A stretch of 63,296 nucleotides of DNA from a virus (IMGVR_UViG_3300001242_000003:1-63296); one strand, 5' to 3'. Counted from the first letter of the stretch, positions 27,316-63,296 are shown. The notes: a model not told the origin generated them from the letters alone. Numbers and translations are program-made.

Positions 27316-28254
27316 TTGGCAAAAACTAATAAAGAAAAAATAATGCAGCTATGTAAGCAGATTGACCAAAAGGAAGGTGCAGGAAGTATATTTAGCCTAG
27401 GCTCTAAAAATTCAGTGTTAAAGATTCCTCGTTGGTCAACTGGCATTGAGGATCTAGATCACATACTGGGTGGCGGAATGCCTGAAGGTAGAATAATTGA
27501 GATATTTGGCCCAGAATCAAGCGGGAAAACTAGCTTAGGTTACCATTTGTCCAGTCTACATGAGCTTTGCTTAAATATACCGATTGAAGGAACTTTTGAT
27601 GCTAATAGAGCTAAGCAGTTTGGTAATAGACCTAAACAAATGCTTGTATATAGAGCAAAATATGGTGAAGCAGCACTTAATAGGGCTATGAAGTTTGCTG
27701 AATCAGGTATTCCATTAATCGTCATTGACAGCGTTCCGGCATTAAAGCCTAAGGAAGATATCGAAAAGCTCAAGAAAAATATCAACAATGATAAAGAGGA
27801 AAATGATCGTATGGGCGGAGTTGCCCGTTTGCTTCATAGGTACGTGCCGATGCTCGAAGAAGTTGTTGAATTTTCCGGCACTACAATTATTTTTATTAAT
27901 CAGGTGCGGGATAAAATGGATGCAATGTTATTTGGTGAAAAAACAGATACACCAGGTGGTAGGGCCTTAAAATTTTATAGTAGTATTAGATTACAAGTAG
28001 CTAGAAAAAGCTGGATTGAAATACCAAATAAAGATCCAAGAAATTCCGCTGTTAATGAAAAAGTTGGTATGATTATGAAAGTTAAAGTAATTAAAAGCAA
28101 AGTTTGTAATCCAATGGGTGAAGCTGAATTGCCAATGTTCTTCAAGCATAATTTTGTTAGCTTTGATGATATTTCAGTGCTTAGAAAACAGCTTATGGCT
28201 GATAGCAGGAAAAAGCGTGGCAATAGTGAGGAGGATGAAGATGGTGAGGAATAG
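27316..28254 (+). CDS. recA: RecA-family recombinase
   Basis: GGMPEGRIIEIFGPESSGKT, VIDSV, FINQVR, TPGGRALKFYSSIR. Confidence 0.92.
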   Translation: MAKTNKEKIMQLCKQIDQKEGAGSIFSLGSKNSVLKIPRWSTGIEDLDHILGGGMPEGRIIEIFGPESSGKTSLGYHLSSLHELCLNIPIEGTFDANRAKQFGNRPKQMLVYRAKYGEAALNRAMKFAESGIPLIVIDSVPALKPKEDIEKLKKNINNDKEENDRMGGVARLLHRYVPMLEEVVEFSGTTIIFINQVRDKMDAMLFGEKTDTPGGRALKFYSSIRLQVARKSWIEIPNKDPRNSAVNEKVGMIMKVKVIKSKVCNPMGEAELPMFFKHNFVSFDDISVLRKQLMADSRKKRGNSEEDEDGEE

Positions 28255-36402: not shown

Positions 36403-36761
36403 GAAAAGTAGATATTAAAACAGTTTGCAAGTATAATGGCCATAGTATTAAAGCAAATGAGGCAGTTGATCTCTCATTGAAGTTCGGATATGATCAACTT
36501 GTAAACTACATACAATTGGTTCAGCTGTTGAATGAAAATATTAATATTATTTCAAAAATAGGCGATAGCAAGCCTATAAAGCTTGGAATATATACGCTGA
36601 AAGAAGTTAAGATTGATAATGACGGTGAAGCGGTTATAAAGTTTAATAGTACACTTAGCTATGTAGAAGCTGACAATTTAAACAAGTTAGCTGGTGAGAT
36701 GCTTAAAGTGCGCTTTAAGGCTGACGTAGAAATAGAAAATGATGGAGAGGATGAAGATTGA
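36390..36761 (+). CDS. Hypothetical protein
   Basis: Coupled ORF. Confidence 0.65.
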   Translation: MAEVRKVDIKTVCKYNGHSIKANEAVDLSLKFGYDQLVNYIQLVQLLNENINIISKIGDSKPIKLGIYTLKEVKIDNDGEAVIKFNSTLSYVEADNLNKLAGEMLKVRFKADVEIENDGEDED

Positions 36762-37588
36762 GCAAAGCTGATAATATGTTCATTAAAATGTGCAGGGATA
36801 TTCTTTCAAATGGAATTAGCTCAGAAGGTGAACAGGTAAGGCCAAAATGGGAGGATGGAACTTCAGCTCATACTATTAAAAAGTTTTGTGTTGTTAACAG
36901 GTATGACTTATCAAATGAATTTCCTATACTTACTTTAAGGCCTACTAATTTAGAAGCTGCAATTGACGAACTGCTTTGGATATGGCAGAAGAAATCAAAT
37001 AATATTAAGAATCTTGGCAGTAGTATTTGGGATAGTTGGGCTAATGAAGATGGCTCGATAGGAAAAGCGTATGGATATCAGTTGGGTATTAAGCATGAAT
37101 ACCCAGAAGGATTATTTGACCAAGTTGACAGAGTATTGTATGATTTAAAGCATAATTCCTATAGTAGAAGGATTATAGTGAATATGTACAACCACAATGA
37201 CCTACATGAAATGAACTTATATCCTTGTGCATATAGTATGACATTTAATGTTACCGGTAAGAAACTTAATGCGATACTAAATCAGCGATCACAAGATGTT
37301 TTAGTTGCAAATAACTGGAATGTATCCCAGTACGCTATATTAATTCATATGTTCGCACAAGTAAGCGATCTTGAAGTTGGCGAATTTGTTCATGTTATTG
37401 CCGATGCTCATATTTATGATAGGCATGTTCCGCTTGTGAAAGAGCTTATTCAGAGAACTTCATTTCCAGCTCCGAGACTAAAAATAAATGTAAGTGTAAA
37501 AGATTTTTATCAATTTAAAGTAGATGATTTTATGCTTAAAGATTATAAGCACGGAATGCAGATTAAAAATATTTCAGTAGCTATTTAA
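36758..37588 (+). CDS. thyA: Thymidylate synthase (canonical)
   Basis: SRRI, L.PC, QRSQD...NWN (Asn at the specificity site), DAHIY. Confidence 0.93.
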   Translation: MSKADNMFIKMCRDILSNGISSEGEQVRPKWEDGTSAHTIKKFCVVNRYDLSNEFPILTLRPTNLEAAIDELLWIWQKKSNNIKNLGSSIWDSWANEDGSIGKAYGYQLGIKHEYPEGLFDQVDRVLYDLKHNSYSRRIIVNMYNHNDLHEMNLYPCAYSMTFNVTGKKLNAILNQRSQDVLVANNWNVSQYAILIHMFAQVSDLEVGEFVHVIADAHIYDRHVPLVKELIQRTSFPAPRLKINVSVKDFYQFKVDDFMLKDYKHGMQIKNISVAI

Positions 37589-49031: not shown

Positions 49032-49134
49032 GAAAATAGAGGCTCTTGAATATGACAATAAAAGTTTAGTTTTTGATGCGTAGTGGTAAAGTTTTAAAAT
49101 GATTAAATTTAAACAAAATTTAATCAAATAGCTA

Positions 49135-49163
49135 TTTACAAATCTACTTTTATATGTTATAAT
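49135..49163 (+). promoter_or_regulatory. SigA-type promoter TTTACA-N17-TATAAT
   Basis: Exact motif. Confidence 0.75.
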
Positions 49164-49184
49164 AATATTTATACCTTAAAAGAG

Positions 49185-50762: not shown

Positions 50763-50774
50763 GAGGTGATATAA

Positions 50775-51029
50775 ATGTTGGAAGGCAAAGTAGTAGCAAC
50801 ACAAGGAACCGGAACCTTTTTAATTGACGTAGGAAAAGGAAAAGCTGTTATTTTTGAGTTTGACAAGAAAACAGTTTCAACTCCATACAACATTGACTCA
50901 ATTGTTGCCCGTGGCTATTGGGATGAATATGATGAAGAAAAAGAAGGACCAATTGATGTTTCGGCGTTAATAAAAGGCGCTAAAGAAATAGATTGGGAAG
51001 GTAAAGAAACAGGGCAGATTGCCGGGTGA
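50775..51029 (+). CDS. Small acidic protein (possible immunity/partner)
   Basis: AGGAGG RBS directly after the DUF3626-like gene. Confidence 0.65.
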   Translation: MLEGKVVATQGTGTFLIDVGKGKAVIFEFDKKTVSTPYNIDSIVARGYWDEYDEEKEGPIDVSALIKGAKEIDWEGKETGQIAG

Positions 51030-51034
51030 TATAA

Positions 51035-51865
51035 ATGCCAAAAAATCCATGGGAGCCTAAGGAAAGGCTTGAACATGGTTATTTTAAATCGCTAAACGAA
51101 ATGTTTAAATATTTGTTCGAGCTTATAAAAAATGAAGTTAATCCATTTATTATTGCCAAGACGTTAAAGTTTGCAATGAATAATCCGGTAATAAAAAGAT
51201 TTGCGTATCAAAAAGCTTCCAAAATGGTAACGCTTTTGTCAGTTGAGAACGCTAAATCATGGCGTCAGGCAGCAGCTAAAGGAAGTAAAGGCAATATTAT
51301 TTACAAAGCGTTAATGCAAGAGCTTAGAGGTCCTATTGGCGGTGAAGTGTATGCTCAAGTAATGCGCAACGCTGGTATAATAACAACTCTTCCGATAGAA
51401 ATATCAGAAAGCGTAACAGAATACATAGCTCGGGAGAGCTTCAAAGGTAAAAGAGCTTTAGAGATCGCAGAAGAAATAAAAACAATGTTTCCGGATAAAA
51501 CAACAGCTAGAGCTAAATTAATTGCTAGAACTGAAGTAAGCAAAACTTCAACAGCGTTAACAAGAGCTAGAGCTGAAAGTATTAATCTTCCTTGGTATGA
51601 ATGGCGTACAAGCGAAGACCAACGTGTAAGGTCAAGTCATAAGCATATGGATAAGGTTCTAATACGTTGGAAAGATGCACCAAGACCGGAAAAGTTAATT
51701 GGAATGCATAATCCACCAGCGCCTTATCATGCCGGAGAGATATATAATTGTAGGTGTTATCCTGCTCCAGTAGTTTATGCTGAATATGTAAAATGGCCTC
51801 ACAAAGTGTTTTATGGTGGGGCTATTGTTATGATGACTAAGAAGCAGTTTGAGCAAATAATGTAA
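51035..51865 (+). CDS. MuF / SPP1 gp7 family minor head protein
   Basis: A.LIARTE, Y.W.T..D.RVR.SH, G...NCRC. Confidence 0.9.
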   Translation: MPKNPWEPKERLEHGYFKSLNEMFKYLFELIKNEVNPFIIAKTLKFAMNNPVIKRFAYQKASKMVTLLSVENAKSWRQAAAKGSKGNIIYKALMQELRGPIGGEVYAQVMRNAGIITTLPIEISESVTEYIARESFKGKRALEIAEEIKTMFPDKTTARAKLIARTEVSKTSTALTRARAESINLPWYEWRTSEDQRVRSSHKHMDKVLIRWKDAPRPEKLIGMHNPPAPYHAGEIYNCRCYPAPVVYAEYVKWPHKVFYGGAIVMMTKKQFEQIM

Positions 51866-51874
51866 AAAAAGAAG

Positions 51875-53404
51875 GTGGTTAAAATACCTAATCCTGGAAT
51901 TAAAAATTTACCGCCGAGCACGGGAAGGATAATACAAGAAGATGGTGATGTTGTAAATTTTGCTGATGTGCTTTACAATTCAGAAGGCAAGCAATTGTTT
52001 TCCAATGACAATCCAGCAGTAGTTGAAGTGCAAAGTAAATTTAATGGTGGAATTGCAACAGGTGGTAGTAACACAACCATCATTGACGATGCTAAGAGCT
52101 TTGAAATTAATATGTTTTCTGGCAATGTAGTAAAAGTAATTGTTGCTGATATTGAATATTACCGTACCGTTTTGAGTAACACAGAAACAACTTTAACAAT
52201 TTCTAGCTTGCCCGGTTCTGCTGCAAGTGCCATTTTGGGAACAGCAGGAACCGCTGAAGTTACTGTAATTTGTGCAAATAAAGGTATTGGTGGTAACGAA
52301 TATACAGCTGAAATTATAGAAGCTCCTGGTACTGATGATAATTTAAGTGCTTCATTAATTGGACTTGTTTTAACTATTTATTTGGGTAAAACAGGAGGAG
52401 TTTTAGACAATACTAAAAATACTGCTACCGCTGTAGCTGCTGTAATTGACCAAATACCCGAGTTTTTTGCAACAATGACAGGCTCAGGAGGGGTAATTGA
52501 GGTTACTGTTGAGCCAGTATCATTTAATGGCGGTATAGCAATTGTTTCTGTATCCGTTGGTTGTGATTATCAAATCAATACTGATTTATCGGTATTAGCT
52601 ACCTCTGAAAGGCAAGATACTCAAACTTCAGCATTAAATGACATACTTGAGCAACTTGAGATGGGCAATGCGCCTAACATATTAAGAAATACGGGTAAGA
52701 TGCCTCCTATAGGCACTGTATTAGGCGCCGGTGGGACATATGAGTCAGACGTTATTGACCGTCCAAATCAAAACATACCGGTTGGACAGACTAGAATATG
52801 GGTGTATGCAGATCAATCTGGGGTTTTAAATTTACGTGAATCTCATAATGGAATAAATTGGACAACAACAAATACTTTGGCTGTTTCTGCCGGAATAACT
52901 AACATTATGAATTGGTTTAAAATGACGCGCAGATATGCGAAAGTAGAGTATGTCAATGGTGGTGTAGCACAAACAGAATTTATTTTGTTGCAATATTTCC
53001 TTGGCGTAGGAGTTACGCTCATAAAAGCCGATGACGGTGATATAGTTTCCATAGGATTAAGAGCTGATGCACCAGTCATTAATCCAGCATTGTCAGCGAG
53101 TGAAATAGCCCTTTTAAAGGGTATATTAAGTCAACTTCAGGGTGGCGGTTCTGGAGCTGCGCCTGTGCAACTAACTGGTAGTACAGTGGAAAAAGCATTT
53201 AGTATTACACCAAACGATAACGCAGACCTGACCAATAATACAATAGCCATTTTTGTGGGCAGCGGTGGTAATCTTAAAATAGACACCATAAATGGTGATA
53301 CCATAACCATGACTAATATTGCTGTCGGGGTGTGGCACCCCATTAAAGTGAAAAAGGTTTATGCAATCGGCACAACAGTTACCAGTGTTTTGGGTGCTTA
53401 CTGA
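51875..53404 (+). CDS. Putative virion decoration protein with cassette-derived C-terminus
   Basis: Thr/Gly-rich beta protein; QLTGST junction encoded at ~53168. Confidence 0.6.
   Translation: MVKIPNPGIKNLPPSTGRIIQEDGDVVNFADVLYNSEGKQLFSNDNPAVVEVQSKFNGGIATGGSNTTIIDDAKSFEINMFSGNVVKVIVADIEYYRTVLSNTETTLTISSLPGSAASAILGTAGTAEVTVICANKGIGGNEYTAEIIEAPGTDDNLSASLIGLVLTIYLGKTGGVLDNTKNTATAVAAVIDQIPEFFATMTGSGGVIEVTVEPVSFNGGIAIVSVSVGCDYQINTDLSVLATSERQDTQTSALNDILEQLEMGNAPNILRNTGKMPPIGTVLGAGGTYESDVIDRPNQNIPVGQTRIWVYADQSGVLNLRESHNGINWTTTNTLAVSAGITNIMNWFKMTRRYAKVEYVNGGVAQTEFILLQYFLGVGVTLIKADDGDIVSIGLRADAPVINPALSASEIALLKGILSQLQGGGSGAAPVQLTGSTVEKAFSITPNDNADLTNNTIAIFVGSGGNLKIDTINGDTITMTNIAVGVWHPIKVKKVYAIGTTVTSVLGAY
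53166..53185. repeat. Cassette entry site TGCAACTAACTGGTAGTACA
   Basis: Exact 20-bp match to 61093-61112 in an otherwise unrelated gene. Confidence 0.8.
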
Positions 53405-53955
53405 TGTTAGGTCTTACTATCGACATACCAACCGCTGCAGTACAAAATTTCCATATTATTGATAATTTTAACCGACCAGACAATAGCGTTACTCTTGGTA
53501 ATGCGGAAACGGGGCAACCATGGTCAGGTGCTACTGGATATGGAATTATTGAGAATCAAGCTTACGCGCTAAGTGCTAATAATGGAGCAGTAATCGATTC
53601 GTATTTAGCAAATGCTACATTACAGGCCACTCTAGCAACGAATATCGGGTTAGGTAGATTACTTTTTCGTTATACCTCAACATCTAATTATTTGCAAATA
53701 GTCCCAGTAATCAGTGGCGCATATAAAATATATAAAACCGTAGCAGGTAGTGCAGTAGAGATTGGATCTCATAATACAATGCCTGCAAACGGTGACTTAA
53801 TTAAAGTAGTCTACGTCGACTCATTAATTAAATTGTATATTAATGGAACTCTTAAGTTAACAGTTGCCGAAGAATTTAATAAAAATGCAACTAAAGTCGG
53901 CATAAAGAGTGGTTATACAGCCAATAGATACGATAATTTCCAATTGGAGGGGTAA
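53404..53955 (+). CDS. Lectin/ConA-like beta-sandwich protein (cassette gene)
   Basis: DNFNR.D...LG.AETGQ.W ... YING...KVGI...DNF. Confidence 0.6.
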   Translation: MLGLTIDIPTAAVQNFHIIDNFNRPDNSVTLGNAETGQPWSGATGYGIIENQAYALSANNGAVIDSYLANATLQATLATNIGLGRLLFRYTSTSNYLQIVPVISGAYKIYKTVAGSAVEIGSHNTMPANGDLIKVVYVDSLIKLYINGTLKLTVAEEFNKNATKVGIKSGYTANRYDNFQLEG

Positions 53956-53957
53956 AA

Positions 53958-54104
53958 ATGATAGTTACCGTGGCTAAAATTATGATTATGGATGAGGACG
54001 TTGGGGAAATGGTTATAGTTCCCGACCTGTCGGAATATGGTAATGTTTCGTGGGGAAAAATTTCAGAGACCGAGGAAACAATGACAGTTGAAATCTACGA
54101 ATAA
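53958..54104 (+). CDS. 48-aa hypothetical protein (cassette gene)
   Basis: GGAGGGG RBS; stop abuts the recombination-like site; not in ORF track. Confidence 0.6.
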   Translation: MIVTVAKIMIMDEDVGEMVIVPDLSEYGNVSWGKISETEETMTVEIYE

Positions 54105-54106
54105 CC

Positions 54107-54128
54107 AACTAACGAAGTTGCGTTAGTC
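54107..54128. repeat. Putative cassette recombination site AACTAACG-AAGTTG-CGTTAGTC
   Basis: 7/8 inverted repeat with 6-bp spacer, 2 nt after a stop; 20/22 identical to 1377-1398. Confidence 0.75.
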
Positions 54129-54186
54129 CGTAAGGTAGTTTAATTTATTGTATAAAATCTTGTATAATATTTAATTTTGAAAGAAG

Positions 54187-55488
54187 GTGGTGAATAATGT
54201 GAAGGCGTTTTATGGTTCAAAAATAAGTCCTAACCAAACTAAGACTCCAGAAGGATTTTTAATTTGTCATAATGTTCCTATAACTAGAGTTGGTTGGCTA
54301 GAGTATTTAGGCCAAGAGCTTGGCTTAAAAGACGCTTATGATCAAATTGTTAAAGTTTATAGGAGTTATGAAGAAGTTTTTAATCCAGCAACAATGGCTT
54401 CATTTGAGAGTAAGTCTGTCACTGATGGTCATCCCTCAAGTGATGTAAGAGCAGACAATTATAGTAGTTATGAAAAGGGGCAAGTTACAAATGTAAGGCA
54501 AGGTCAAGGAAATGAATCAGATTTATTATTAGCTGATTTAGTCATAAAAGACCCGTTGCTTATATCAGAAATTGATCATAATGGCAAGCGTGAAGTCTCT
54601 TGTGGTTATGATTGCAATTATATTCCAATTCCAGGCGAAGAAGGTAAGTATAGCCAAGTCCAAATAAGAGGTAATCATGTTGCAGTTGTTCCTTCCGGAA
54701 GAGCCGGCAACAGGGTTTCAATAAAGGATGAAAGTCCAAAAATAAAAAGGTATGAAAGGAGAAAGAAAATGCCTATTAATAAAAAAGGTATATTCGGAAG
54801 AATGTTATCAGCGTTTGCAAGGGATGCTGAACCTGAGGAATTAGCTGAGGCTGCAAAAATGGGGCCTACAGAAGATGGCATCGGAATTGATCCAAATGTT
54901 CAAGTTGTACCAGCTAAGCCAGTAGTTGATGAACCATCGCAACAAAATATTAGTATTTCAGAGCTTGTTAAACAAGTGCAAGCGTTAACCGCAGTCGTAG
55001 GTCAGCTTTTGCAGGCTGAAAAATCTGAACCGAATCACAGTCCTGATGACCTTGAAAGCTTAATTTCAGAGCTTGAGGCGCCAAATGGCCAACGTGACAA
55101 TGCTGGTGAAGAATCAGTAACTATTTCTCCGGAACAAATGACTGATGCTGAACCAATTTCTTCGCCTTGTGATAGGCCTAATAATCCTATTCCGGGAGCT
55201 GATAGAAATGTTGTTTTAAATGCTATTAAGGCTATAAAGCCAATTATTGCTGCTATTCCCGATGCCGGTGAAAGAAAGAAAGCGTCTGATGCTCTTGCTA
55301 AAACTTTCAGGGATCAAATTGTTCAATCTCCTGTAAAGTTTGGTAACTTAAATGGCTATGAAGCTATTCAAAGCGCTATTTCAGCCAATGCTAGACAAAC
55401 AAAAGACAGCAATAAGCCTGACCCTGCTGAAGAAGGAAGAAATTGGGCTAAAAAATATAATCCTCATTGCAAAGAAGGAGGCAAATAA
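54187..55488 (+). CDS. DUF2213 prohead protease / scaffold
   Basis: TPEGFLIC.NVPI.R.G, VT.GHP, EVSCGY, NHVAVV..GRAG. Confidence 0.88.
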   Translation: MVNNVKAFYGSKISPNQTKTPEGFLICHNVPITRVGWLEYLGQELGLKDAYDQIVKVYRSYEEVFNPATMASFESKSVTDGHPSSDVRADNYSSYEKGQVTNVRQGQGNESDLLLADLVIKDPLLISEIDHNGKREVSCGYDCNYIPIPGEEGKYSQVQIRGNHVAVVPSGRAGNRVSIKDESPKIKRYERRKKMPINKKGIFGRMLSAFARDAEPEELAEAAKMGPTEDGIGIDPNVQVVPAKPVVDEPSQQNISISELVKQVQALTAVVGQLLQAEKSEPNHSPDDLESLISELEAPNGQRDNAGEESVTISPEQMTDAEPISSPCDRPNNPIPGADRNVVLNAIKAIKPIIAAIPDAGERKKASDALAKTFRDQIVQSPVKFGNLNGYEAIQSAISANARQTKDSNKPDPAEEGRNWAKKYNPHCKEGGK

Positions 55489-55489
55489 T

Positions 55490-56002
55490 ATGCCAGGTCA
55501 AGCAATTGGAACAAGTATGCTTTATGGATATCCGGGTTCTTTTGCTCGGAATGGTGATTGTGTTATAAGAAACAGAATTGTTAAAACAACTGCTCCTGCT
55601 TTTGGTGACCCAGTTGTTTTAAACACTGATGGTACTGTTACAAAATTTGGTGCAGCTGGTACAGCAGCTACTTTTGATGGTGTTGCTGTTCGTGAAGTAA
55701 TGCAAAATGCAGCTTATTTGCCTGCTATTGGAACTTATGCAGTTGGCCAGCCGTGTGATGTTATTCAGCGTGGTTCTGTTTCGGTTATTTGTAATGTTGG
55801 CACTCCTACTGCTGGTGGGGCTGTATACATAAGAGTTACAGCAAATGCAGGTATTCCGGCTGGAGTTGTTGGCGGATTTGAATTCCGTTCTGATACTGAT
55901 GACGACAAGTGTCTTTTAATTACAAATGCCAAATGGACGAATGGTTTAATTGATGCTAATAAAGTGGCTGAATTAACCATACTTAGTCGGCTTAATCCCT
56001 AA
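55490..56002 (+). CDS. Head decoration / cement protein
   Basis: MPG.AIG..M..G.PG...RGSVSV.C..G.P..GG.VYIR; ATG 55490 after GGAGG. Confidence 0.75.
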   Translation: MPGQAIGTSMLYGYPGSFARNGDCVIRNRIVKTTAPAFGDPVVLNTDGTVTKFGAAGTAATFDGVAVREVMQNAAYLPAIGTYAVGQPCDVIQRGSVSVICNVGTPTAGGAVYIRVTANAGIPAGVVGGFEFRSDTDDDKCLLITNAKWTNGLIDANKVAELTILSRLNP

Positions 56003-56026
56003 AATAAATTAAGGAGGTAAAATACG

Positions 56027-57055
56027 TTGAGTGTAAAAACTTATCCAATTAAGGATATAAGAACAATTGACAGCTTGGTAGCAAGCCAAGGCGGATTCTC
56101 AATGATGACTACAGACGCAGCTACGGCTGGCGGCATGGCGTTTTTAATTGGTGAACTTGAAAAGCGTGATCCTAAAGTGCGTGAGCCATTGACTTCAGTT
56201 ACGTGGGCTCGTGATATTGTTGCCAAAACTGGTGGCGGATGGGTAGAATTTACTTCTACTATGAATGTAAGTTATGCTACTGCCGGACCAAATGATCATG
56301 GTATTATTGGTGGTGAAACTACTAATATTCCGGTAATGCAGGCTGATATTGGCAAAGATATTTACAAAGTTTTCACCTGGGGTAATATTCTCAAAATACC
56401 ATTTGTTGATCAGGCAAAACTGCAAAATATTGGCCGCAGTCTTGACGATATACTCGATAAAGGTATTCGTCTAAACTATAATAAAACTGTTGACCAAAGC
56501 GTTTATAAAGGATTTACATCCGCTGGTACTACTGGAATTATAAATGATCCTAATGTTGTAGCGACAAGCGTTGCAAATGGTGCAGCCGGTACCAGTGCTT
56601 GGAACACAAAAACTCCGGATGAAATTTTGAATGATATTAATCAGTTAATGATTGCAGGTTGGGCTGCTGCTGAGTATGATTTATCAGGTATGCCTAACCA
56701 TATCTTAATTCCTCCTGCTCAGTACGCTTATATTGTTGGTACTAAAGTTTCAGCAGCTGGTAACGTATCAATCCTGGAGTTCTTGTTGAATAATAATATC
56801 GGTAAAAACCAGGGCGTTGATTTAGTAATTGCTCCGTCAAGATGGTGTATTGGAGCTGGAACAGGTAATACAGACAGAATGCTTGCTTATGTAAATGATG
56901 AAGACAAACTTTATTTTGACCTTACTGTTCCGTGCGCTCGGATTATGACTCAGCCTTCAGTTACTGACATGGCGTATCTTACTGCTTATGCAGCACAAAT
57001 TGGTGTTGTTAAGTTTCTTTATTTGCAGCCGCCCCGTTATGGTGACGGAATCTAA
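56027..57055 (+). CDS. Major capsid protein (DUF2184 family)
   Basis: FL..ELEK.DP...EPL...TW.RDI; W..KTPDEIL.DIN; PNHILIPP. Confidence 0.92.
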   Translation: MSVKTYPIKDIRTIDSLVASQGGFSMMTTDAATAGGMAFLIGELEKRDPKVREPLTSVTWARDIVAKTGGGWVEFTSTMNVSYATAGPNDHGIIGGETTNIPVMQADIGKDIYKVFTWGNILKIPFVDQAKLQNIGRSLDDILDKGIRLNYNKTVDQSVYKGFTSAGTTGIINDPNVVATSVANGAAGTSAWNTKTPDEILNDINQLMIAGWAAAEYDLSGMPNHILIPPAQYAYIVGTKVSAAGNVSILEFLLNNNIGKNQGVDLVIAPSRWCIGAGTGNTDRMLAYVNDEDKLYFDLTVPCARIMTQPSVTDMAYLTAYAAQIGVVKFLYLQPPRYGDGI

Positions 57056-57068
57056 TTAAATAAACGAT

Positions 57069-57088
57069 GGGCAGGCGTTTACCTGCCC
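57069..57088 (+). terminator. Hairpin after the capsid gene
   Basis: GGGCAGG-CGTTTA-CCTGCCC; lacks a strong T-tract. Confidence 0.5.
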
Positions 57089-57121
57089 GCTACATATTAA
57101 ATAATTTGGGAGGTTTTATTT

Positions 57122-57445
57122 ATGGTAAGAGTATTCTCAAAAAGAACTTTTGAATTTACAAGACGTGAGGAAAAAGATGGCCTAATGGCTGCTGTAGAAG
57201 TTGCAAGAACTGGTACGCTTGATTTTTTTGATTTGCCTGATTGGGCTGTATCAGACCCGTTATTTAAGTGGGCGCAACAAGATGGAGACATCGAAGTTAT
57301 TTTTAACAAAGCTGATGAAAAGGAAGCTGAATTGAATGCAACTATTCAGCCGGCGCAAGCTGTTAATACTGCAAATGCAACACAGCAAAATAAGAACAAT
57401 AATGGCGCTAATTATAATAAAAACACAAGTTATGGTAAAAAATAA
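57122..57445 (+). CDS. Hypothetical head-associated protein
   Basis: PDW...DP.F..A..DG.I motif following the MCP. Confidence 0.65.
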   Translation: MVRVFSKRTFEFTRREEKDGLMAAVEVARTGTLDFFDLPDWAVSDPLFKWAQQDGDIEVIFNKADEKEAELNATIQPAQAVNTANATQQNKNNNGANYNKNTSYGKK

Positions 57446-57466
57446 TCGGTAAGGCAGGTGTTATAA

Positions 57467-57991
57467 ATGCCTTTTCCTGAAAATATAATTCCTGATACGT
57501 ATCCAACAAGTGTATCAAGTGAATTTACTATTGTTTCCAATGCTTCAAATTTACGTTTTGGTGATAATCCTGCATATACGATTGACGATTTTGTTGCGAT
57601 GTTTACACAATTTGGTCCTGATGCAAATGAGAATTATATTGTTTCTCAAACAATGCTACAACTGTATATAAACCTTGCAAGCGCCAGTATTCAAGAATCA
57701 AGGTTTCATGAGTATTGGCAGCTTTGTATGGGTTTATTTGTAGCACATTTTGCAACGCTTATTCTTGAAGGAATAAAGCAACCGGGAGGAACTTCCGCAA
57801 GCATTATTGAACTTGGCAAAGCTAAAGGTTTGCGTACTTCGAAGTCTGTTGGTCCGATAAGCACAAGTGTTGATTATAGTGCTATTGTTCAAGATTTAGA
57901 TGGTTGGGCTTCTTGGAAACTTACAACTTTCGGTCAGCAATTAGCAACAATATCAAAGCTAGTTGGTAAGGGTGGAATGATGGTATGGTAA
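57467..57991 (+). CDS. Head-tail adaptor (DUF4054-like)
   Basis: LFVAH..., SKSVG..S...D, W..T.FGQ. Confidence 0.8.
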   Translation: MPFPENIIPDTYPTSVSSEFTIVSNASNLRFGDNPAYTIDDFVAMFTQFGPDANENYIVSQTMLQLYINLASASIQESRFHEYWQLCMGLFVAHFATLILEGIKQPGGTSASIIELGKAKGLRTSKSVGPISTSVDYSAIVQDLDGWASWKLTTFGQQLATISKLVGKGGMMVW

Positions 57992-58476
57992 GCGTTACTG
58001 TTACTTCGCCTATTAATAATGTTGAAAAAATGCGTAAGATGGCAGAAAAATTATCTAAGTTGAATGTGTTAGTTGGCATTCCGCAAGAAAAGTCAAGTAG
58101 GCCAAAAGGAAAAATAACAAATGCTGAATTAGCTTATATTCATACACATGGTTCGCCAATTAATCACATTCCGGCAAGGCCAATTATTGAGCCAGCAATA
58201 GAAGATGAAGAGAATAAAGCTATTATTTCTATTGGTTTAAAAGAAGCAGCAAAAGCCGCACTTAACGGTGATGAGCAGACAACAATGTTGGAGTTAAATA
58301 AAGCAGGAATGTCTGCTCAAAATGCTGTTCGTGATTGGTTTACTAATTTTAAAAACAATTGGGCGCCAAATTCTCCGTTAACAATCAGGAGAAAGGGCAG
58401 CGATAGGCCATTAATTGATACTGCTGAATTAAGAAAATCAATAACATATGTAATAAGAAAGAAGGGTCAAAGATGA
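57985..58476 (+). CDS. Neck / tail completion protein
   Basis: VGIP...NA.LA.IH..G...IPARP...PN.P.TI..KGSD.PLIDT. Confidence 0.75.
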   Translation: MVSVTVTSPINNVEKMRKMAEKLSKLNVLVGIPQEKSSRPKGKITNAELAYIHTHGSPINHIPARPIIEPAIEDEENKAIISIGLKEAAKAALNGDEQTTMLELNKAGMSAQNAVRDWFTNFKNNWAPNSPLTIRRKGSDRPLIDTAELRKSITYVIRKKGQR

Positions 58477-58823
58477 TTGATGTTAGTGAAATTATTTATG
58501 ATCCTGACTTTTGCCAGAATTTTATTGCTAAAAGAAAATCAGGCAAATGGGTAGACGGAAGGTATATTGAAGAGTTAACAGAAATTAATTTAACTGGAAT
58601 TATTGTGCCAGCTAGTTCACATGAATTAAAGCAAATACCAGAAGGCGATAGAGTTACAGGCATGATGGCATTTTATGCTGTAAATGAAATTTATACTACA
58701 AATGAAACTGGAACTTCAGATATAATTGTTTGGAAATCAAAAAGTTATAGAATAATGAATGTAACCCCTTATTCCGATTATGGATACTTTTTAGCTTTAG
58801 GCGTTTATATGGAGAGTGTGTAA
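58473..58823 (+). CDS. Head closure protein
   Basis: L..IPEG.R...DII.W....YR motif; position. Confidence 0.7.
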   Translation: MIDVSEIIYDPDFCQNFIAKRKSGKWVDGRYIEELTEINLTGIIVPASSHELKQIPEGDRVTGMMAFYAVNEIYTTNETGTSDIIVWKSKSYRIMNVTPYSDYGYFLALGVYMESV

Positions 58824-58826
58824 ACC

Positions 58827-59360
58827 ATGGCTGATATTATTCTTACTTTAAAGCAAATAGAAAATATTTTTCAAAGTCTTACTTGCAGCTTGACTGGTCT
58901 CAATAATGATTCAGGGGTAAGACTGTCATGGCCAACTAAAGGTTCGCCAGGATGGAGTGTGAACGAAGATGTTGTTTTTATTCAGGTTGTGTTTGGTTCA
59001 GATTCGTATACACAACAAAGAGAAACAGAATATCAGGATGATATAGCTAATGATGTTAAGAAGGTTATTGCATCTTATACCAGAGTTCACAATATAAAGT
59101 GGACTATTTACGGTCCTAATAGTTATGAACATGGCGAATCAATTAAGAATGGAATTTATTTGCCAACTACAAGAGGTATTTTGAGACATAATAATTTAAG
59201 TTTGATTCTTAATGTTGGTGATGTTAAAAGGTTTCCTGAATTGTTTAACGGACAATGGTGGGAAAGGGTTGATTTTGAGGCTAGTTTTAACGAAAAAGTG
59301 GTACGATATTCAACTATACCATATTTAGTTGGTGTAAATATACAAGTTAAAAAGGGGTGA
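58827..59360 (+). CDS. Neck / tail terminator protein
   Basis: YGPNS...PE..NGQWW.R.D. Confidence 0.7.
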   Translation: MADIILTLKQIENIFQSLTCSLTGLNNDSGVRLSWPTKGSPGWSVNEDVVFIQVVFGSDSYTQQRETEYQDDIANDVKKVIASYTRVHNIKWTIYGPNSYEHGESIKNGIYLPTTRGILRHNNLSLILNVGDVKRFPELFNGQWWERVDFEASFNEKVVRYSTIPYLVGVNIQVKKG

Positions 59361-59366
59361 TATAAA

Positions 59367-60476
59367 TTGGCAACTTTGCCTTTAAGTGATATTGTTAATG
59401 TATCTGTGGTAGTATCCCCGATAGCAGCAACCAGGTCTAATTTTAATTTAGGGCTTATTATTGGTACTAGCACTGTAATTAGTGCTAGTGATAGAATAAA
59501 GCTTTATACAAAAGTTGATGATATGGTTATTGATGGATTTACAATTAATAGCTCGGAGTATAAAGCAGCAACTCTTTATTTTTCTCAGGTTCCTAAGCCA
59601 CAGAAGGTTGCTATAGGTCGTTGGGATACAACTGGAGCTGAAACAGCCGTACAAGCTGTAACGCTTTGTAGAGCTAAAAATACAGATTGGTATTCATGTA
59701 TGATATGCGGGGCTGTTAAAGCTGATATTATAGCTGTTTCAGAGTATATTGAGGCGGCATTGCCAAGTAGCACTTATTTTTATACTACTTCGGATGCCGA
59801 TGTAATACCAAAAACTGCTGGAAATATTATGGCAACTTTAAAAGCAAGTAACTACATGCGAACTATCGGTCAATATAGCACTTATGCAGATGCGGTTGCT
59901 TCGATTATGGGGTATGCAATGGGGGCAAATAGTTCTACAGCTAATAGCTCATATACGCTGGCGTATAAAAAAGAAGTAGGAGTAACGTCAGAAGTTTTAT
60001 CGTTAACTGATCTTACTGCTATAAAAAGCCAAAATGGGAATGCTTATGTTAATCGTGGTAATACATACGATATCTTTGAGCAAGGTATTATGGCCAATGG
60101 CCAACATTTTGATGAGGTCCTTGGCCTTGATATGCTTACTAATAGCATTCAAATGGCAGTTATGGATCTTTTGGTTGGTGTTAGGAAAGTTCCGCAAACT
60201 GAAGGCGGAGTAACTTTACTTATAAATGCTATTACGGGTCCGTGTAACGATTCTAAAAATAAAGGATTTATTGCTCCTGGTATTTGGAAAGCTGCTCCTG
60301 TCTTGACTTTGGAAACAGGAGACACATTATCACAAGGCTATTTAATTTTGTCTGAAACAATTGATAGTCAAAGCGAAGCTGATAGGTCAGCTAGAATTGC
60401 CCCGCCAATCTATGTTTGTGTTAAATTGGCTGGCGCCATTGAATTTGTTTTAATTGAAGTCTTAGTAAACAGATAA
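59367..60476 (+). CDS. Tail sheath protein (DUF3383)
   Basis: LPLSDIVNV.V, EYKAA..YF.Q.P.P, KVPQT..G, R..R.APPI...KLAGAI. Confidence 0.88.
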   Translation: MATLPLSDIVNVSVVVSPIAATRSNFNLGLIIGTSTVISASDRIKLYTKVDDMVIDGFTINSSEYKAATLYFSQVPKPQKVAIGRWDTTGAETAVQAVTLCRAKNTDWYSCMICGAVKADIIAVSEYIEAALPSSTYFYTTSDADVIPKTAGNIMATLKASNYMRTIGQYSTYADAVASIMGYAMGANSSTANSSYTLAYKKEVGVTSEVLSLTDLTAIKSQNGNAYVNRGNTYDIFEQGIMANGQHFDEVLGLDMLTNSIQMAVMDLLVGVRKVPQTEGGVTLLINAITGPCNDSKNKGFIAPGIWKAAPVLTLETGDTLSQGYLILSETIDSQSEADRSARIAPPIYVCVKLAGAIEFVLIEVLVNR

Positions 60477-60491
60477 GGAGGTGTATGTTAA

Positions 60492-60926
60492 ATGCCTTAT
60501 AGTGTATATAGTTTTGCAGATGTGTCCATGACTATTTCCCATCCTTCGGTTGGCCAATATATTTCTGAAAGTGGCGAAGGTCTTGGTTCAATAGCAGTAA
60601 GTAGGGCAACAGATAATACTGTGCATGATTTATCAGCTGACGGAGCTGTTATGGTAAGCAAAATAAAAGGTAGAAACGGAACAATAGCTATAACCATACA
60701 GCAAATATCAAACTTAAATAAGTGGTTGTTAAAATGGTTTAACTATCTTGAAACGGCTGCTACTGACCAATGGGCTGATACTAAAGTAGTGATTCGGTCT
60801 CCAGTTATGCAAGATTTAATTACCGCACTTGGAGTATCGCCTCAAAAACCAGCTGAAAAACCATACCAAGCGCAAGGTCAAAATATATCCTGGGCCTTGA
60901 TGGCTGCTGATATTCAACAAGACTAG
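60492..60926 (+). CDS. Tail tube protein
   Basis: YSF.DV...G.G.I...ADG.VM.S...G.NG.I.I..QQ.S. Confidence 0.85.
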   Translation: MPYSVYSFADVSMTISHPSVGQYISESGEGLGSIAVSRATDNTVHDLSADGAVMVSKIKGRNGTIAITIQQISNLNKWLLKWFNYLETAATDQWADTKVVIRSPVMQDLITALGVSPQKPAEKPYQAQGQNISWALMAADIQQD

Positions 60927-60941
60927 GAGGTGGTATAATAA

Positions 60942-61349
60942 ATGACTATAGCTGGTGAAACTGTAAATGTGCAGTTTTTAAACAAAGGTTCTATAATAAG
61001 TGAGCAAAATCCTCTTCCTGTGCGGAATTGTTTTCAAACTCCAGGAGGGCTTTGGGTTTATCAGAAATATGCTGATACCGGGGAGGTGCTTATGCAACTA
61101 ACTGGTAGTACACTTCAGGAAGAAAAAACGCAGGCAAATGCTGTTACAGGTGTAGTAACATTTTCTGCAAATATTTCAACTATTGAAATTTTAAATACAG
61201 ATACAGTTAATACAGGTGTTTTTACTGTTAACGGAATACCTATTACAGTACCTCCTACTGGTATATGGAAAGATGGAGTTGGTGGAACCCCAGGTGCAAC
61301 AGTCACCGTTGCTGGTTCAACCGCTTACATCTTACATAGATTTTCGTAG
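60942..61349 (+). CDS. Hypothetical virion protein with cassette-derived C-terminus
   Basis: Contains the QLTGST junction at ~61095. Confidence 0.6.
   Translation: MTIAGETVNVQFLNKGSIISEQNPLPVRNCFQTPGGLWVYQKYADTGEVLMQLTGSTLQEEKTQANAVTGVVTFSANISTIEILNTDTVNTGVFTVNGIPITVPPTGIWKDGVGGTPGATVTVAGSTAYILHRFS
61093..61112. repeat. Cassette entry site TGCAACTAACTGGTAGTACA
   Basis: Exact 20-bp match to 53166-53185. Confidence 0.8.
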
Positions 61350-61362
61350 GAGGTGGTAGATA

Positions 61363-62574
61363 ATGGGATATAAGCAAATAGGAATAGCAACCAAAACAAT
61401 AGACAGTAGTAAATTAACTACCGCATCCGTCACACCAGATAAAACAGATTTCATCAAAGAAGTTAAAAATTTATTTGACCATACGGATGCAAAAGTACTT
61501 AACCACAGAATTTTAGTAGAAACAGGTGGCACAGACGGTACAGTCTATAGCGACACACGTATGACCACAGGTTATATCCCTGTCAGACCAGGAGATAACT
61601 TAATATGTTCATATTTGAGCACCTCCGGGGTAGTAAGTACAGTTGTTTATTATATCGTAGCAGTTTACGACAAGAATCAAAAACGAATAGTTTTTACGAC
61701 GGTAACCAGTTCAACCTATATTGTACCTGCGAATGCTGAATATGTGCGTTTCTCCTTTAATACTTCTTATTACGCGAGAAAAGCATATGTTCAAGTGGCT
61801 GTCGGAACTGAAATAAGTTTTCCGACAAAATATAAGAAACAAATGGATATATCTCTCTTGGATAAACCATACAAACCTGTTAAGGATACAATAGCTGAGT
61901 TAGTGCAAAATAGTTTATTATTGACTGGCACAAGCACAGTTAACATTAAACTTGTCGGTGATAGTATCACTCATGGGGTAGGCGGTACAGGGTTTTTAGA
62001 GGACGGTAATTTAATTATCTCTGGTTTTAACCGTAACCCTAATGGTTATTGTTGGGCGAAACTTTTTAAAGAATATATGGAAGCAAAATTTAATTGTTTG
62101 GTAACAAATAACGCCTGTCGTGGCACACACTCAGGTTATTTAAGACAATATTGGGATACTCTAGTCAGTCCCACTGATGATATTGTCATATGTATGTATG
62201 GCACTAATGACCGTGGGTCAGGTGCCTACAGTGCATTATTAGAAAATTTACAGCTTTTTCTAGACAGAGTGGATATAGATAATCAAAAAATAATCTTGAT
62301 GAGTAGTATTCAAGCATCTGTAACAAATGATGCAACTTACACCTTTCATATGGAAGATGTTGACAATGCAATAATGTCAATAGCAGCCGCAAACAACGTA
62401 GAATATATTTCTTTATTTAAGTTGTTTAGAGATTATATTGATGCGAGAGGTATTAGTTTTGATACACTCTCTGCTGATGGATTACACCCTAACGATGCGG
62501 GTTATGATATTATGTTTTATCTTATTTTAAATGCTTTGGGACTGGGTAATAAAGTTAGTGGTGCTACTTGGTAA
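61363..62574 (+). CDS. SGNH/GDSL hydrolase-domain protein (cassette gene)
   Basis: GDSITHG, G (RG), GTND, DGLHPN. Confidence 0.88.
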   Translation: MGYKQIGIATKTIDSSKLTTASVTPDKTDFIKEVKNLFDHTDAKVLNHRILVETGGTDGTVYSDTRMTTGYIPVRPGDNLICSYLSTSGVVSTVVYYIVAVYDKNQKRIVFTTVTSSTYIVPANAEYVRFSFNTSYYARKAYVQVAVGTEISFPTKYKKQMDISLLDKPYKPVKDTIAELVQNSLLLTGTSTVNIKLVGDSITHGVGGTGFLEDGNLIISGFNRNPNGYCWAKLFKEYMEAKFNCLVTNNACRGTHSGYLRQYWDTLVSPTDDIVICMYGTNDRGSGAYSALLENLQLFLDRVDIDNQKIILMSSIQASVTNDATYTFHMEDVDNAIMSIAAANNVEYISLFKLFRDYIDARGISFDTLSADGLHPNDAGYDIMFYLILNALGLGNKVSGATW

Positions 62575-62611
62575 GTTAACTAACGAAGGTACGTAATGGA
62601 GGTGAAGTAAT

Positions 62612-62761
62612 TTGTTTCCATCAATTTATAATCAAAAACAAATAGATAAACTAAAACATGGCAATATTAAATTTAAAATTATTTATAAAGGTACTAACAT
62701 AAACGGTGAAAAATTTTATCATATACGTATTGATTCCTTACCGTTTATTGTCATGCATTAG
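62612..62761 (+). CDS. Duplicate of the 49-aa cassette ORF
   Basis: Copy of 1217..1366. Confidence 0.55.
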   Translation: MFPSIYNQKQIDKLKHGNIKFKIIYKGTNINGEKFYHIRIDSLPFIVMH

Positions 62762-62827
62762 GCTGTTACCCAACTAACGAAGGTGCGTTAGTTTTATAAT
62801 ATAATAAGCGAAAGGATATATAAAATA

Positions 62828-63256
62828 ATGAATAAGCGTGTTTTGTTTAAAACATTTGAATTAGATGGCAGAAAGTGGCGTATTGGGAAATTTAATGCGA
62901 TGGTAGGTTCATATATTGCATATAAACTTATGGCCGAAGTAATGCCGTTAGGAATAGCGCAACAAGCAGGCATACCGGTTCCAGCTGGCGGAAAATCAAT
63001 GAGTAAGGCAGATTTTATAGAATTACAAAAAGATTGTTTATCTTGTTGTTATGAATTTCTTCCGGCTGGTCCAGCTCCAGTTATTAATGAAAACGGAACT
63101 TTTGGAGTTGAAGACTTAGAAAACAATGTAAAAGTTGTTATGGCTTTAACGATTCAAGCTTTGATTTTTAATGTTTCAGATTTTTTTACAGAAAACCTCT
63201 TGAGTTCACTAGCCGATTCAATGAAGACTTTAATCCCGCCCGTTGCAAAAATATAA
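62828..63256 (+). CDS. Tail assembly chaperone (duplicate copy)
   Basis: Identical translation to 1433..1861. Confidence 0.8.
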   Translation: MNKRVLFKTFELDGRKWRIGKFNAMVGSYIAYKLMAEVMPLGIAQQAGIPVPAGGKSMSKADFIELQKDCLSCCYEFLPAGPAPVINENGTFGVEDLENNVKVVMALTIQALIFNVSDFFTENLLSSLADSMKTLIPPVAKI

Positions 63257-63296
63257 ATGAGTTTCTTTATGCTCCGGTAATAGCTGGAGTTTGGAA

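Follow-up and report, generated by a model that had tools for sequence, protein, structure and literature searches.

Two short DNA signals appear to mark add-on virion genes traded within a groundwater phage community

Phage host range and surface properties change mostly through swapped distal domains of virion proteins, and the formation of the joints is usually ascribed to "illegitimate recombination plus selection". The window (the whole 63,296-nucleotide stretch of viral DNA analysed here) raises the question of how such joints arise in a case where they carry two defined and conserved DNA elements, found in about fifty contexts, one of which is tied to a specific recombinase gene. The comparisons below describe a groundwater phage community that appears to trade add-on virion genes marked by these two short signals.

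Paired boundary elements at two virion-gene loci

Accessory modules adjoin core genes at two places in the window, between the MuF and DUF2213 protease genes (locus 1) and between the tail tube and tail chaperone genes (locus 2), and the genes of this region all lie on one strand. The relevant features are:

27316..28254, + strand: RecA homologue (PF00154, E 8e-51), the sole recombination enzyme recognised in the genome
51875..53404, + strand: 509-aa mosaic accessory virion-associated protein, without a counterpart in relative L005
53166..53185, + strand: 5' boundary element 1, the in-frame 20-mer TGCAACTAACTGGTAGTACA coding QLTGST, with conserved core AACTAACTGGTAG
53404..53955, + strand: 183-aa cargo ORF with weak homologues within other cassettes (L250, L052, L135, L039)
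53958..54104, + strand: 48-aa terminal cargo ORF
54100..54135, + strand: 3' boundary element 1 with its outer-arm positions, palindromic site AACTAACG-AAGTTG-CGTTAGTC at 54107-54128; an orphan, the downstream recombinase gene being absent
60942..61349, + strand: 135-aa accessory protein, N-terminal ~50 aa and then a C-terminal ~80-aa beta-sandwich domain
61093..61112, + strand: 5' boundary element 2, 20-mer identical to element 1, in frame as QLTGST
61363..62574, + strand: 403-aa cargo protein; residues 198-383 form an SGNH/GDSL esterase domain
62578..62599 (= 1183-1204), + strand: half site, left arm plus spacer AACTAACGAAGGT, right arm non-matching
62612..62761, + strand: 49-aa ORF between half site and full site, resembling a single-ORF cassette
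62765..62800, + strand: 3' boundary element 2, palindromic site AACTAACG-AAGGTG-CGTTAGTT at 62772-62793 (= 1377-1398), directly preceding the tail chaperone gene

Given that bases 1-1901 are identical to 61396-63296 and that this repeat begins within the esterase gene, it is probably an assembly overlap, leaving the genome with two palindromes and one half site.

The 20-mer of the 5' element has two exact matches in the window (53166 and 61093) versus 0.01 expected, and both are read in frame, as VQLTGST in the 509-aa ORF and MQLTGST in the 135-aa ORF. An earlier note on this DNA had described it as shared by two otherwise unrelated genes, and BLASTP of the two C-terminal parts bore this out, with the alignment limited to 10 residues around QLTGST; residues 435-508 of the 509-aa protein match the 86-aa family phrog_12296. 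The AACTAAC core that the same note had taken as the common mark was unremarkable by itself (22 copies versus 12.6 expected). Among relatives, 33 of 40 testable contexts have an in-frame [QK]LTG[SR] 540-2244 nt upstream of a palindrome and on its strand. The LTG[SR] motifs upstream of sites use the codons CTA-ACT-GGT in 34/37 cases versus 0/3 elsewhere in the same loci, CTA being a rare codon that accounts for 7% of leucine codons in this genome. Four more records of whole or partial genomes (G008, G010, G016, G018) have the 13-mer once or twice, with five of its six occurrences upstream of a site, and no opposite-strand 14-mer occurred in the palindrome-bearing loci tabulated. Unrelated genes with a chance 14-mer are colinear on both sides of it. 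At base, and against the reading in the earlier note, the in-frame motif is a protein motif. [Q/K]LTG[S/R] forms the opening strand of an ~80-aa domain, and distant relatives (L006, with AAATTAATAGGCAGC, L279 and L273) have it in a degenerate form with synonymous changes. Nucleotide alignments between relatives end at this motif. The 5' motif has CAACTAAC in common with the left arm of the palindrome; it is without a second arm, and its "spacer" is unlike that of the palindrome.

For the 3' element, the pattern ACTAACG-N6-CGTTAGT occurs twice in the window (54108; 62773 = 1378) versus 0.10 expected. These are two of three palindromes reported previously; the third, at 62578, has AACTAACGAAGGT in common with the other two, but its right arm is mismatched and it does not fold. 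The window sites start 2, 3 and 10 nt past the stops of ORFs 53958-54104, 61363-62574 and 62612-62761, in agreement with the 2-10 nt reported before. Across IMG/VR and metagenome contigs the palindrome was recovered in 51 distinct contexts. It is always found on the coding strand, where it overlaps a stop codon or follows one by 2-12 nt. The small ORFs preceding it are unrelated to each other, and the 48-aa ORF of locus 1 has no homologue among those at other palindromes. Its full consensus is TTAnCnAACTAACG-AAGGTG-CGTTAGTTnGnTAA, ~34-36 bp in length and lox/dif-like in architecture. The inner arms are invariant over the 51 contexts (7 nt were fixed by the search pattern, 8 nt are kept in most copies) and the outer arms follow the consensus at spaced positions, giving arms of 14-15 bp around a 6 bp spacer. 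The two ~11-bp inverted arms and 6-8 bp central region of an Xer/dif-type site are thus present, in keeping with the tyrosine-recombinase architecture proposed earlier. Symmetric variants preserve the palindrome in L239 (ACTATCG/CGATAGT) and L261 (GCTAACG/CGTTAGC), and uncompensated ones occur in L118, L135, L264 and L276. Sites may also be repeated: L317 has two full sites 407 nt apart flanking a 71-aa ORF, and half sites made of left arm plus spacer, broken at the spacer/right-arm boundary, lie upstream of the full site in the window (-194) and in L041 (-85).

Flanks and cargo reassort among relatives

The earlier note's description of cargo blocks between core genes was confirmed by L005, where MuF is joined directly to DUF2213 and the tube directly to the chaperone, both blocks being absent; L006, L007 and L008 carry other content at these two loci. 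As the earlier note had suggested checking, relatives lose homology to one another exactly at the in-frame motif and at the palindrome, and the cargo that lies between these two points differs. Comparison of 43 sites with two flanks (903 pairs) gave 1 pair sharing both flanks, 12 sharing the upstream flank only and 32 the downstream flank only. In the cassette table, equal flanks enclose unlike interiors (L035/L039, L016/L064) and one interior occurs in five flank contexts. The same mixing is seen within proteins, where the segment KFTAANPASV precedes three different domains and one domain is found behind four different N-termini. Other junctions in this region lie at ordinary conserved sequence, such as the duplicated DUF2213 leader of L007, and contigs in other runs diverge at 53749, within a cargo gene. 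Searches for an excision product, an empty in-frame acceptor (...QLTKVR*) and a circle junction, the empty-site products that the earlier note had anticipated, found none.

Recombinase genes near the palindrome and competing explanations

The window gave no match to tyrosine (PF00589), serine or Y1 site-specific recombinases and no recombinase remnant was found in it; the earlier statement that the phage has no recombinase holds for these classes but not for the RecA homologue. New here is a gene for a Xer-like tyrosine recombinase near the palindrome. In 9 of 37 testable contexts (those with enough downstream sequence) a same-strand gene of this kind, coding ~280 aa, begins in the first 1 kb downstream, and it is absent within 1 kb in the remaining 28; PF00589 matches occur in 13 of 30 related records. 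The enzymes have the catalytic R, K, HxxR, H and Y residues, their best models are XerC, XerA and XerD and their best solved structures 4a8e and 1a0p, with scores below every equivalog cut-off (XerC 207.8 bits, cut-off 335; XerA 207.0, cut-off 220). L008 retains a 35-aa C-terminal recombinase remnant exactly at the expected site position. Starting from the protein, a family-type palindrome lies no more than 700 nt upstream of 12 among 74 recombinase homologues and is absent there for the other 62, so that part of the link could reflect the shared ancestry of one phage community. In addition, since the same recombinase family adjoins a repressor in distant, temperate-looking loci, the palindrome could be an attP relic.

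The palindrome most likely serves as the core recombination site for the Xer-like enzyme encoded directly downstream in relatives. We give an even chance to a model of exchangeable modules in which an in-frame linker forms the 5' end and an orphan tyrosine-recombinase site, served by this enzyme, the 3' end. In this model, a module would begin inside a gene at the linker AACTAACTGGTAG, as the first strand of a swappable C-terminal domain, and would end at the palindrome TTAnCnAACTAACG-AAGGTG-CGTTAGTTnGnTAA. Recombination of site with site, between co-infecting genomes or through excised circles, would reassort both sides, with stacking of small site-bounded cassettes as a further outcome. The window phage would have lost its recombinase and kept two orphan sites and one half site, and present activity would therefore need enzyme supplied in trans by a co-infecting relative. 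The nucleotide-identical 5' linker may act as a short-homology crossover point for phage RecA, or else as a partial site because CAACTAAC is common to it and the left arm. The anatomy, the pairing of the two elements, the reassorted flanks and the nearby recombinase genes are observed directly; we infer both the action of the recombinase on the palindrome and the manner of 5' junction formation, as no excision product was seen. A bolder version, which we consider doubtful, is a community-level system in which a small Xer-like enzyme, encoded by some of the genomes only, would act on the 34-36 bp palindrome and on the QLTGS partial site to swap C-terminal domains of virion proteins in frame along with enzyme or lectin cargo, with most genomes, the window included, holding orphan sites and borrowing the enzyme during co-infection; if true, it would combine shufflon and integron logic in a hybrid distributed over virulent-type phages.

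By contrast, recombination could have been homologous or microhomology-driven throughout, with phage RecA and selection for intact domains, the 5' element being a protein linker, the 3' element a regulatory or attP-relic hairpin, and both merely short conserved sequences in which no site-specific enzyme is involved. We regard this as possible, if on the unlikely side. The window encodes RecA and no site-specific recombinase, further junctions fall in ordinary conserved sequence, at the protein level the motif begins a domain and it degenerates with distance, excision products were searched for and none seen, and PeSL motifs of T4-type phages offer a precedent (PMC2839356). However, in most pairs the palindrome is kept as an island between flanks that are unrelated on both sides, its arms keep a spaced consensus over 14-15 bp with symmetric variants, an Xer-like gene adjoins it in 9/37 contexts, and half sites end at the spacer/right-arm boundary. 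The common core of 13-22 nt is also a short shared sequence for RecA-type exchange. The coding-strand position of the hairpin close behind stop codons, and the C to T variants in L006 and L120 that keep a G-U pair, would suit an RNA-level role, as a 3' stabiliser, processing site or factor-dependent terminator ending accessory transcripts, whose conservation would reflect a phage RNA-binding factor and recombination at the hairpin a by-product. The stem does fold (-9.4 to -10.4 kcal/mol for 46 nt), but it beats shuffles only by a modest margin (z -1.4 to -1.9); at 54100-54186 and 62765-62827 a consensus scan listed neither a terminator nor a promoter on the + strand, most copies are without a T run, Rfam gives no match to the site, the outer arms are kept to consensus rather than by pairing, and the adjacency of the recombinase is left unexplained. 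We consider this reading improbable.

Still less probable, in our judgement, is the integron-like scheme of the earlier note, with an attI-like in-frame site, attC-like palindromes, and a tyrosine recombinase of the host that moves cassettes one at a time. The direct core CAACTAAC stands at both cassette ends and its inverse only at the 3' site, two-cassette arrays exist in the window and in L317, and AACTAAC/GTTAGTT resembles the integron core consensus RYYYAAC/GTTRRRY at 6/7 positions each. Clusters of attC can occur in phages without an integrase (PMC9892861). Against this, relatives encode no integron integrase (TIGR02249 scores of 102.8 and 77.7 bits, from the C-terminal ~60-70 aa only, versus a cut-off of 265), the simple ~22-36 bp palindrome is too short for attC, the recombinase is downstream and co-oriented rather than divergent, and cassettes carry up to three ORFs and start within a gene. 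The bacterial palindrome arrays sought beside a recombinase were likewise absent: a scan of one genome per species returned 9 stretches, none with a recombinase, the entry motif or loops common in phages. One of these stretches, L230, carries GAGGTG, the loop of phage locus L090. The likely recombinase for the palindrome is phage-borne in relatives, and the proposal of a host enzyme acting in trans was not upheld.

How the joints form can be tested directly, given a 36-bp site and a 280-aa enzyme. Should the enzyme act on these sites, the result would be a natural in-frame domain-exchange device and a compact new recombinase/site pair; if it is inactive on them, they are still an unusually clean case of conserved linkers guiding module exchange in uncultured phages.

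Likeness to known systems

In the R64 shufflon (Rci) and the invertible tail-fibre segments of Mu/P1 and phiCh1, an in-frame site likewise joins constant N-terminal and variable C-terminal parts of a surface protein, and Rci sites, too, have one conserved arm only. Alternative segments there are inverted within one genome, whereas the alternatives here are spread over different genomes. An invertible segment was rejected given the single strand of the window-region genes and the lack of an opposite-strand 14-mer in the tabulated loci. P1 Cre/loxP likewise has a small, simple tyrosine recombinase encoded beside its site in a phage; the 34-bp site, a recombination hotspot, has 13-14 bp inverted arms and an asymmetric spacer. 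P1 relies on a single site and a single enzyme for cyclisation and dimer resolution, whereas here several sites per genome, often orphan, stand at accessory-module ends.

Integron attC is a structured site of 57-141 bp with two nested imperfect repeat pairs (R''-L''...L'-R'), extrahelical bases and variable sequence. By contrast, the site here is a ~34-bp palindrome with a single perfect 7-8 bp arm pair and a 6-nt spacer, invariant over 51 contexts, and attC identity was rejected. Integron cassettes, including phage attC clusters that lack an integrase (PMC9892861), also place cargo before a stop-adjacent palindromic site, form small tandem cassettes and leave orphan sites. Their recombinase is likewise an Xer-related tyrosine enzyme, whereas here the IntI-specific domain is absent, the recombinase is downstream and co-oriented, and the first cassette, of 2-3 ORFs, is fused in frame to a resident gene.

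PeSL cassettes of T4-type phages (PMC2839356, PMC4122927) likewise have short conserved intergenic stem-loops flanking non-essential genes in hyperplastic regions of virulent phages. There they mark insertion, deletion and replacement events and serve as promoter-terminator units exchanged via homologous recombination (PMC2839356, PMC4122927). The stem-loop here is non-canonical as a terminator, has a tyrosine recombinase gene associated with it and forms a pair with an in-frame coding linker; a PeSL, with a strong sigma-70 promoter and a terminating stem-loop, was set aside after the consensus scan of both window sites.

Finally, Xer/dif and the dif modules of Acinetobacter plasmids share short palindromic sites with a 6-bp spacer that bound discrete accessory modules, and the latter shuffle between replicons by a Xer-like enzyme that need not be aboard, as described (PMC13141974, PMC6449649, PMC7399989). 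The Acinetobacter type, with two full Xer sites in alternating orientation, was rejected as an identity for the present modules. Here phage genomes serve as the replicons, some members encode the recombinase themselves, all sites point the same way on the coding strand, and an in-frame coding motif takes the place of a second full site at the 5' boundary.

Paired elements in two virion-gene loci

All genes of the window lie on the + strand (G+C 35%), and the portion carrying the two loci is organized as listed below.

Features of the virion-gene portion of the window (start position, strand, feature)
47442, +, portal
51035, +, MuF-like head protein
51875, +, 509-aa protein with its C-terminal 74 aa matching phrog_12296, an 86-aa family
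53404, +, 183-aa ORF
53958, +, 48-aa ORF
54107, +, palindrome
54187, +, DUF2213 protease-like gene
downstream of the DUF2213 gene, +, capsid and tail genes
60492, +, KPP10_Orf10-type tube protein
60942, +, 135-aa protein
61363, +, SGNH esterase
62578, +, half site
62612, +, 49-aa ORF
62772, +, palindrome
62828, +, tail assembly chaperone

The 20-mer TGCAACTAACTGGTAGTACA is present as exact copies at 53166 and 61093 (0.01 expected) and keeps the reading frame in both genes, giving VQLTGST and MQLTGST, respectively. BLASTP alignment of the two C-terminal parts is limited to this stretch, confirming the identical in-frame 20-mer in two otherwise unrelated genes reported by the earlier note. The three palindromes of that note are reduced to two: ACTAACG-N6-CGTTAGT was found at 54108 and 62773 (0.10 expected), and at 62578 only the left arm and spacer agree with them, this site not folding. 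Nor does the bare 7-mer AACTAAC, taken by the note as a shared core, stand out as a signal (22 observed vs 12.6 expected). Bases 1-1901 are identical to the last 1901 (61396-63296). The starting point of this exact repeat, 33 nt inside the esterase gene, points to an assembly overlap in a circular or permuted genome and away from physical terminal repeats; the sites at 1183 and 1377 would therefore be the same copies as those at 62578 and 62772.

Thirty further window proteins were scanned for function, and among them were DNA polymerase III alpha, primase, RNase H, carbamoyltransferase, terminase subunits, two thymidylate-synthase-like proteins and a RecA homologue (27316-28254). Six-frame searches of the window for tyrosine recombinases, serine recombinases and Y1 transposases were negative, and the proposed lack of a phage recombinase holds for these classes but not for RecA. 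The carbamoyltransferase adjoins a 504-aa protein that contains a domain similar to thymidylate synthase and weakly matches thymidylate kinase, and the genome has a second, ordinary thymidylate synthase as well (20452-23820 and 36758-37588); together, the carbamoyltransferase and the two thymidylate-synthase-like proteins raise the possibility that the phage DNA contains a modified pyrimidine. A 525-aa ORF (49185-50762), kept in the related loci L006-L009, lies between portal and MuF, with only a sub-threshold DUF3626 match and a PHROG of unknown function. Rfam gave no match within 51000-63296, a near-identity search with 49000-63296 returned zero GenBank phages, and a protein search with the 509-aa ORF gave a single match, of 69 aa, in one Verrucomicrobia phage.

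Module boundaries across related phages

Six relatives were retrieved via the DUF2213 protein. One of them (L005) has DUF2213 immediately after MuF and chaperone immediately after tube, and other content fills the first locus in L006, L007 and L008 and the second in L006; judged from these sequences, both loci are accessory. In L006, the most distant among L005-L008, the N-terminal parts still have homologues, and homology to the 135-aa protein ends at the motif. Another relative (L004:340-1380) has, at the MuF/DUF2213 accessory hotspot, a 346-aa ORF containing a YVDD motif of reverse-transcriptase type, with an Ala/Gly/Thr-rich protein of 230 aa downstream; this ORF could be a retroelement or diversity-generating element using this locus.

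The in-frame motif, written as [Q/K/E][L/I]TG[S/R/N], was found 540-2244 nt 5' of the palindrome on the same strand in 33 of the 40 contexts with enough upstream sequence. An inversion system was rejected because opposite-strand copies are absent from the palindrome-bearing loci tabulated. Four further whole or partial genomes (G008, G010, G016 and G018) carry the 13-mer one or two times each, with 5/6 occurrences upstream of a palindrome. A codon-blind search at the protein level recovered 37 distinct contexts in which LTG[SR] precedes a palindrome by no more than 3.5 kb. The codons CTA-ACT-GGT are used in 34 of them, compared with 0/3 elsewhere in the same loci; CTA represents 7% of leucine codons in the window genome.

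Ungapped nucleotide alignments showed that homology stops at the motif. The N-terminal sequence KFTAANPASV leads into three unrelated domains at this point, and the domain QLTGSRGSVIAHRTAIT was found behind four different N-termini. By contrast, unrelated genes with a chance 14-mer (e.g. lysozymes), serving as an internal control, were colinear on either side. In a table of 20 cassettes, each running from motif to palindrome, identical flanks enclosed differing interiors in L035/L039 and L016/L064, and one interior occurred in five different flank contexts. The breakpoints that the earlier note expected in related phages are thus present, and the observation is real and reaches across a community of related phages.

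In L006, the motif equivalents are KLMDS, KLIGS and KLMGS with synonymous differences, and the palindrome is degenerate too; distant homologues of the 135-aa protein have QLTGS (CAACTAACGGGGAGT), SVTGS or EVSGS. Because the motif is degenerate in such distant homologues and an Atlas model of the 135-aa protein aligns with small beta-sandwich proteins from residue 53-59 on, the motif is predicted to form the first strand of an autonomous domain of about 80 aa. Its nucleotide identity would then be an extra layer, limited to the community also sharing the palindrome. Long-range RNA pairing of the motif with the right arm of the palindrome was rejected because the motif variants AAATTAAC, AAAATAAC and GAGATAAC are uncompensated, and internal translation initiation at the (G/A)TG preceding QLTGS was rejected because the Shine-Dalgarno sequence is not kept in other contexts.

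Pattern scans of IMG/VR returned 7 and 94 stretches, many of the 94 being chance matches to the 14-base pattern, and a clear family was set apart by its flanks and its spacer (AAGGTG or AAAATG, plus one-off variants). An exact 22-mer scan of metagenome contigs added 37 stretches with 26 new contexts, for a pooled total of 51 distinct contexts. On the coding strand, the palindrome overlaps a stop codon or lies up to about 12 nt past it, and the small ORFs 5' of it are mutually unrelated. Among 903 pairs compared (43 sites with both flanks available), both flanks were common to 1 pair, the upstream flank alone to 12 and the downstream flank alone to 32. The extended consensus reads TTAnCnAACTAACG-AAGGTG-CGTTAGTTnGnTAA. 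Since each outer arm trends to its own consensus at spaced positions and outer pairing is kept in just 26-33 of the 51 copies, the pattern is closer to that of a DNA half site bound by protein than to that of an RNA helix. No intrinsic terminator was called at the palindrome on the + strand, and its folding showed a modest gain over shuffles. L147, considered as an entry/palindrome hybrid, was rejected as a palindrome variant with a stop before it.

A tyrosine recombinase of relatives

PF00589 matches were found in 13 of 30 related records. A recombinase family of about 280 aa, 49-63% identical to the L007 protein, lies 44-390 nt 3' of the palindrome on the same strand, and 9 of the 37 pooled contexts with enough downstream sequence contain a recombinase there. 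The catalytic R, K, HxxR, H and Y are present, the top models are XerC, XerA and XerD (all under cut-off), and the closest solved structures are Xer proteins. Two copies are broken (L064 and L220), and in L008 the palindrome is absent and replaced by a 35-aa tyrosine-recombinase C-terminal remnant (...ATHLL...LLGHARIDTARIYAYL) immediately 5' of DUF2213. The second PF00589 match of G008 was rejected as the site recombinase, being an unrelated 312-aa integrase with the site absent nearby.

A single-protein search for relatives of the recombinase returned only the query's own contigs. Site-blind protein alignment fetched eighty homologues, of which 74 were tabulated; a near-duplicate contig and rows without sequence upstream of the gene account for the six left out. 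A family-type palindrome lies within 700 nt upstream in 12/74, two of these being symmetric variants (ACTATCG/CGATAGT in L239 and GCTAACG/CGTTAGC in L261), and the other 62 have no palindrome upstream. A further locus (L258) has a 9-bp palindrome of different sequence and equal spacing. Because the enzyme adjoins a repressor in temperate-looking loci, its ancestral role may have been integration.

Other elements also recur 5' of these genes. A strong conserved terminator-like hairpin, AAGACCTCT-TATTT(T/C)T(T/G)-AGAGGTCTT, sits about 285-342 nt 5' of the recombinase gene in L011, L016, L064, L263, L286 and L290, and several relatives have a conserved AATTGAATATT box plus terminator-like hairpin between palindrome and recombinase gene. 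A different perfect palindrome, TAGTTATAT-AAGTT-ATATAACTA, recurs 39-197 nt 5' of recombinase homologues (L280, L282, L292, L298 and L311) and may be an operator.

Possible routes of module exchange and known parallels

The best reading, to which we give an even chance, is that these are exchangeable virion-gene modules with a nucleotide-conserved coding linker at the 5' end and an orphan putative Xer-type recombination site at the 3' end. Tandem sites bear on it. In L317, a 71-aa ORF lies between two full palindromes 407 nt apart, 3' of a motif-initiated cassette, and the window has the same layout with the half site replacing the first palindrome. In L041, a half site lies 85 nt 5' of the full site, and the match stops directly past the spacer. 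Such patterns would fit insertion of a site-bearing circle or a crossover inside the site, or they may stem from decay.

The main rival, purely homologous recombination, is in our estimation less likely. Several observations speak against a purely site-specific reading. An in-frame empty acceptor (...QLTKVR* from a long upstream ORF) was found at none of the palindromes, the longest open stretch being 38 codons. This DNA was recovered from 18 sequencing runs labelled groundwater or soil metagenome, all as contigs; in four runs with the same phage at a depth of about 3-5, from which rare excision products could escape, the contigs had zero joints, indels or the empty-site junctions suggested by the earlier note. 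Contigs of other runs leave the window match for unlike sequence at 53749 (inside a cargo gene, in three runs), 49109 and 50908, and phage variants therefore have breakpoints away from both elements. Other junctions nearby lie at ordinary conserved sequence. Behind the recombinase stop of L007 comes a copy of the DUF2213 leader with the first codons, and this copy starts a 559-aa ORF; the leader (TTGAAAGAAGGTGGTGA..GTGAAG) is duplicated (L007:4530-4570 and 6215-6245), its diverged second copy opening the real DUF2213 gene, which places a module junction in a ribosome-binding region. Finally, a bacterial genome scan gave 9 stretches, none with a recombinase or entry motif and none a plausible host site (attB/dif or chromosomal arrays), contrary to the recombinase-linked arrays envisaged earlier; the host is possibly missing from the genomes scanned. 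One of these stretches (L230, Syntrophomonadaceae) has a GAGGTG loop in common with L090.

The integron label that goes with the integron-like reading of the earlier note failed its defining tests; the recombinase of relatives scores far under the integron-integrase cut-off. As an analogy, the comparison that the modules work like an integron is fair; the label itself is not. Going by titles and the starts of abstracts, this arrangement is described in none of the matching open-access papers and preprints on phage tyrosine recombinases, tail fibres, Xer and cassettes, integron-like ones in phage genomes included. The published systems nearest to these modules are PeSL cassettes (PMC2839356), Xer-dependent dif modules and the integron components found in phages (PMC9892861).
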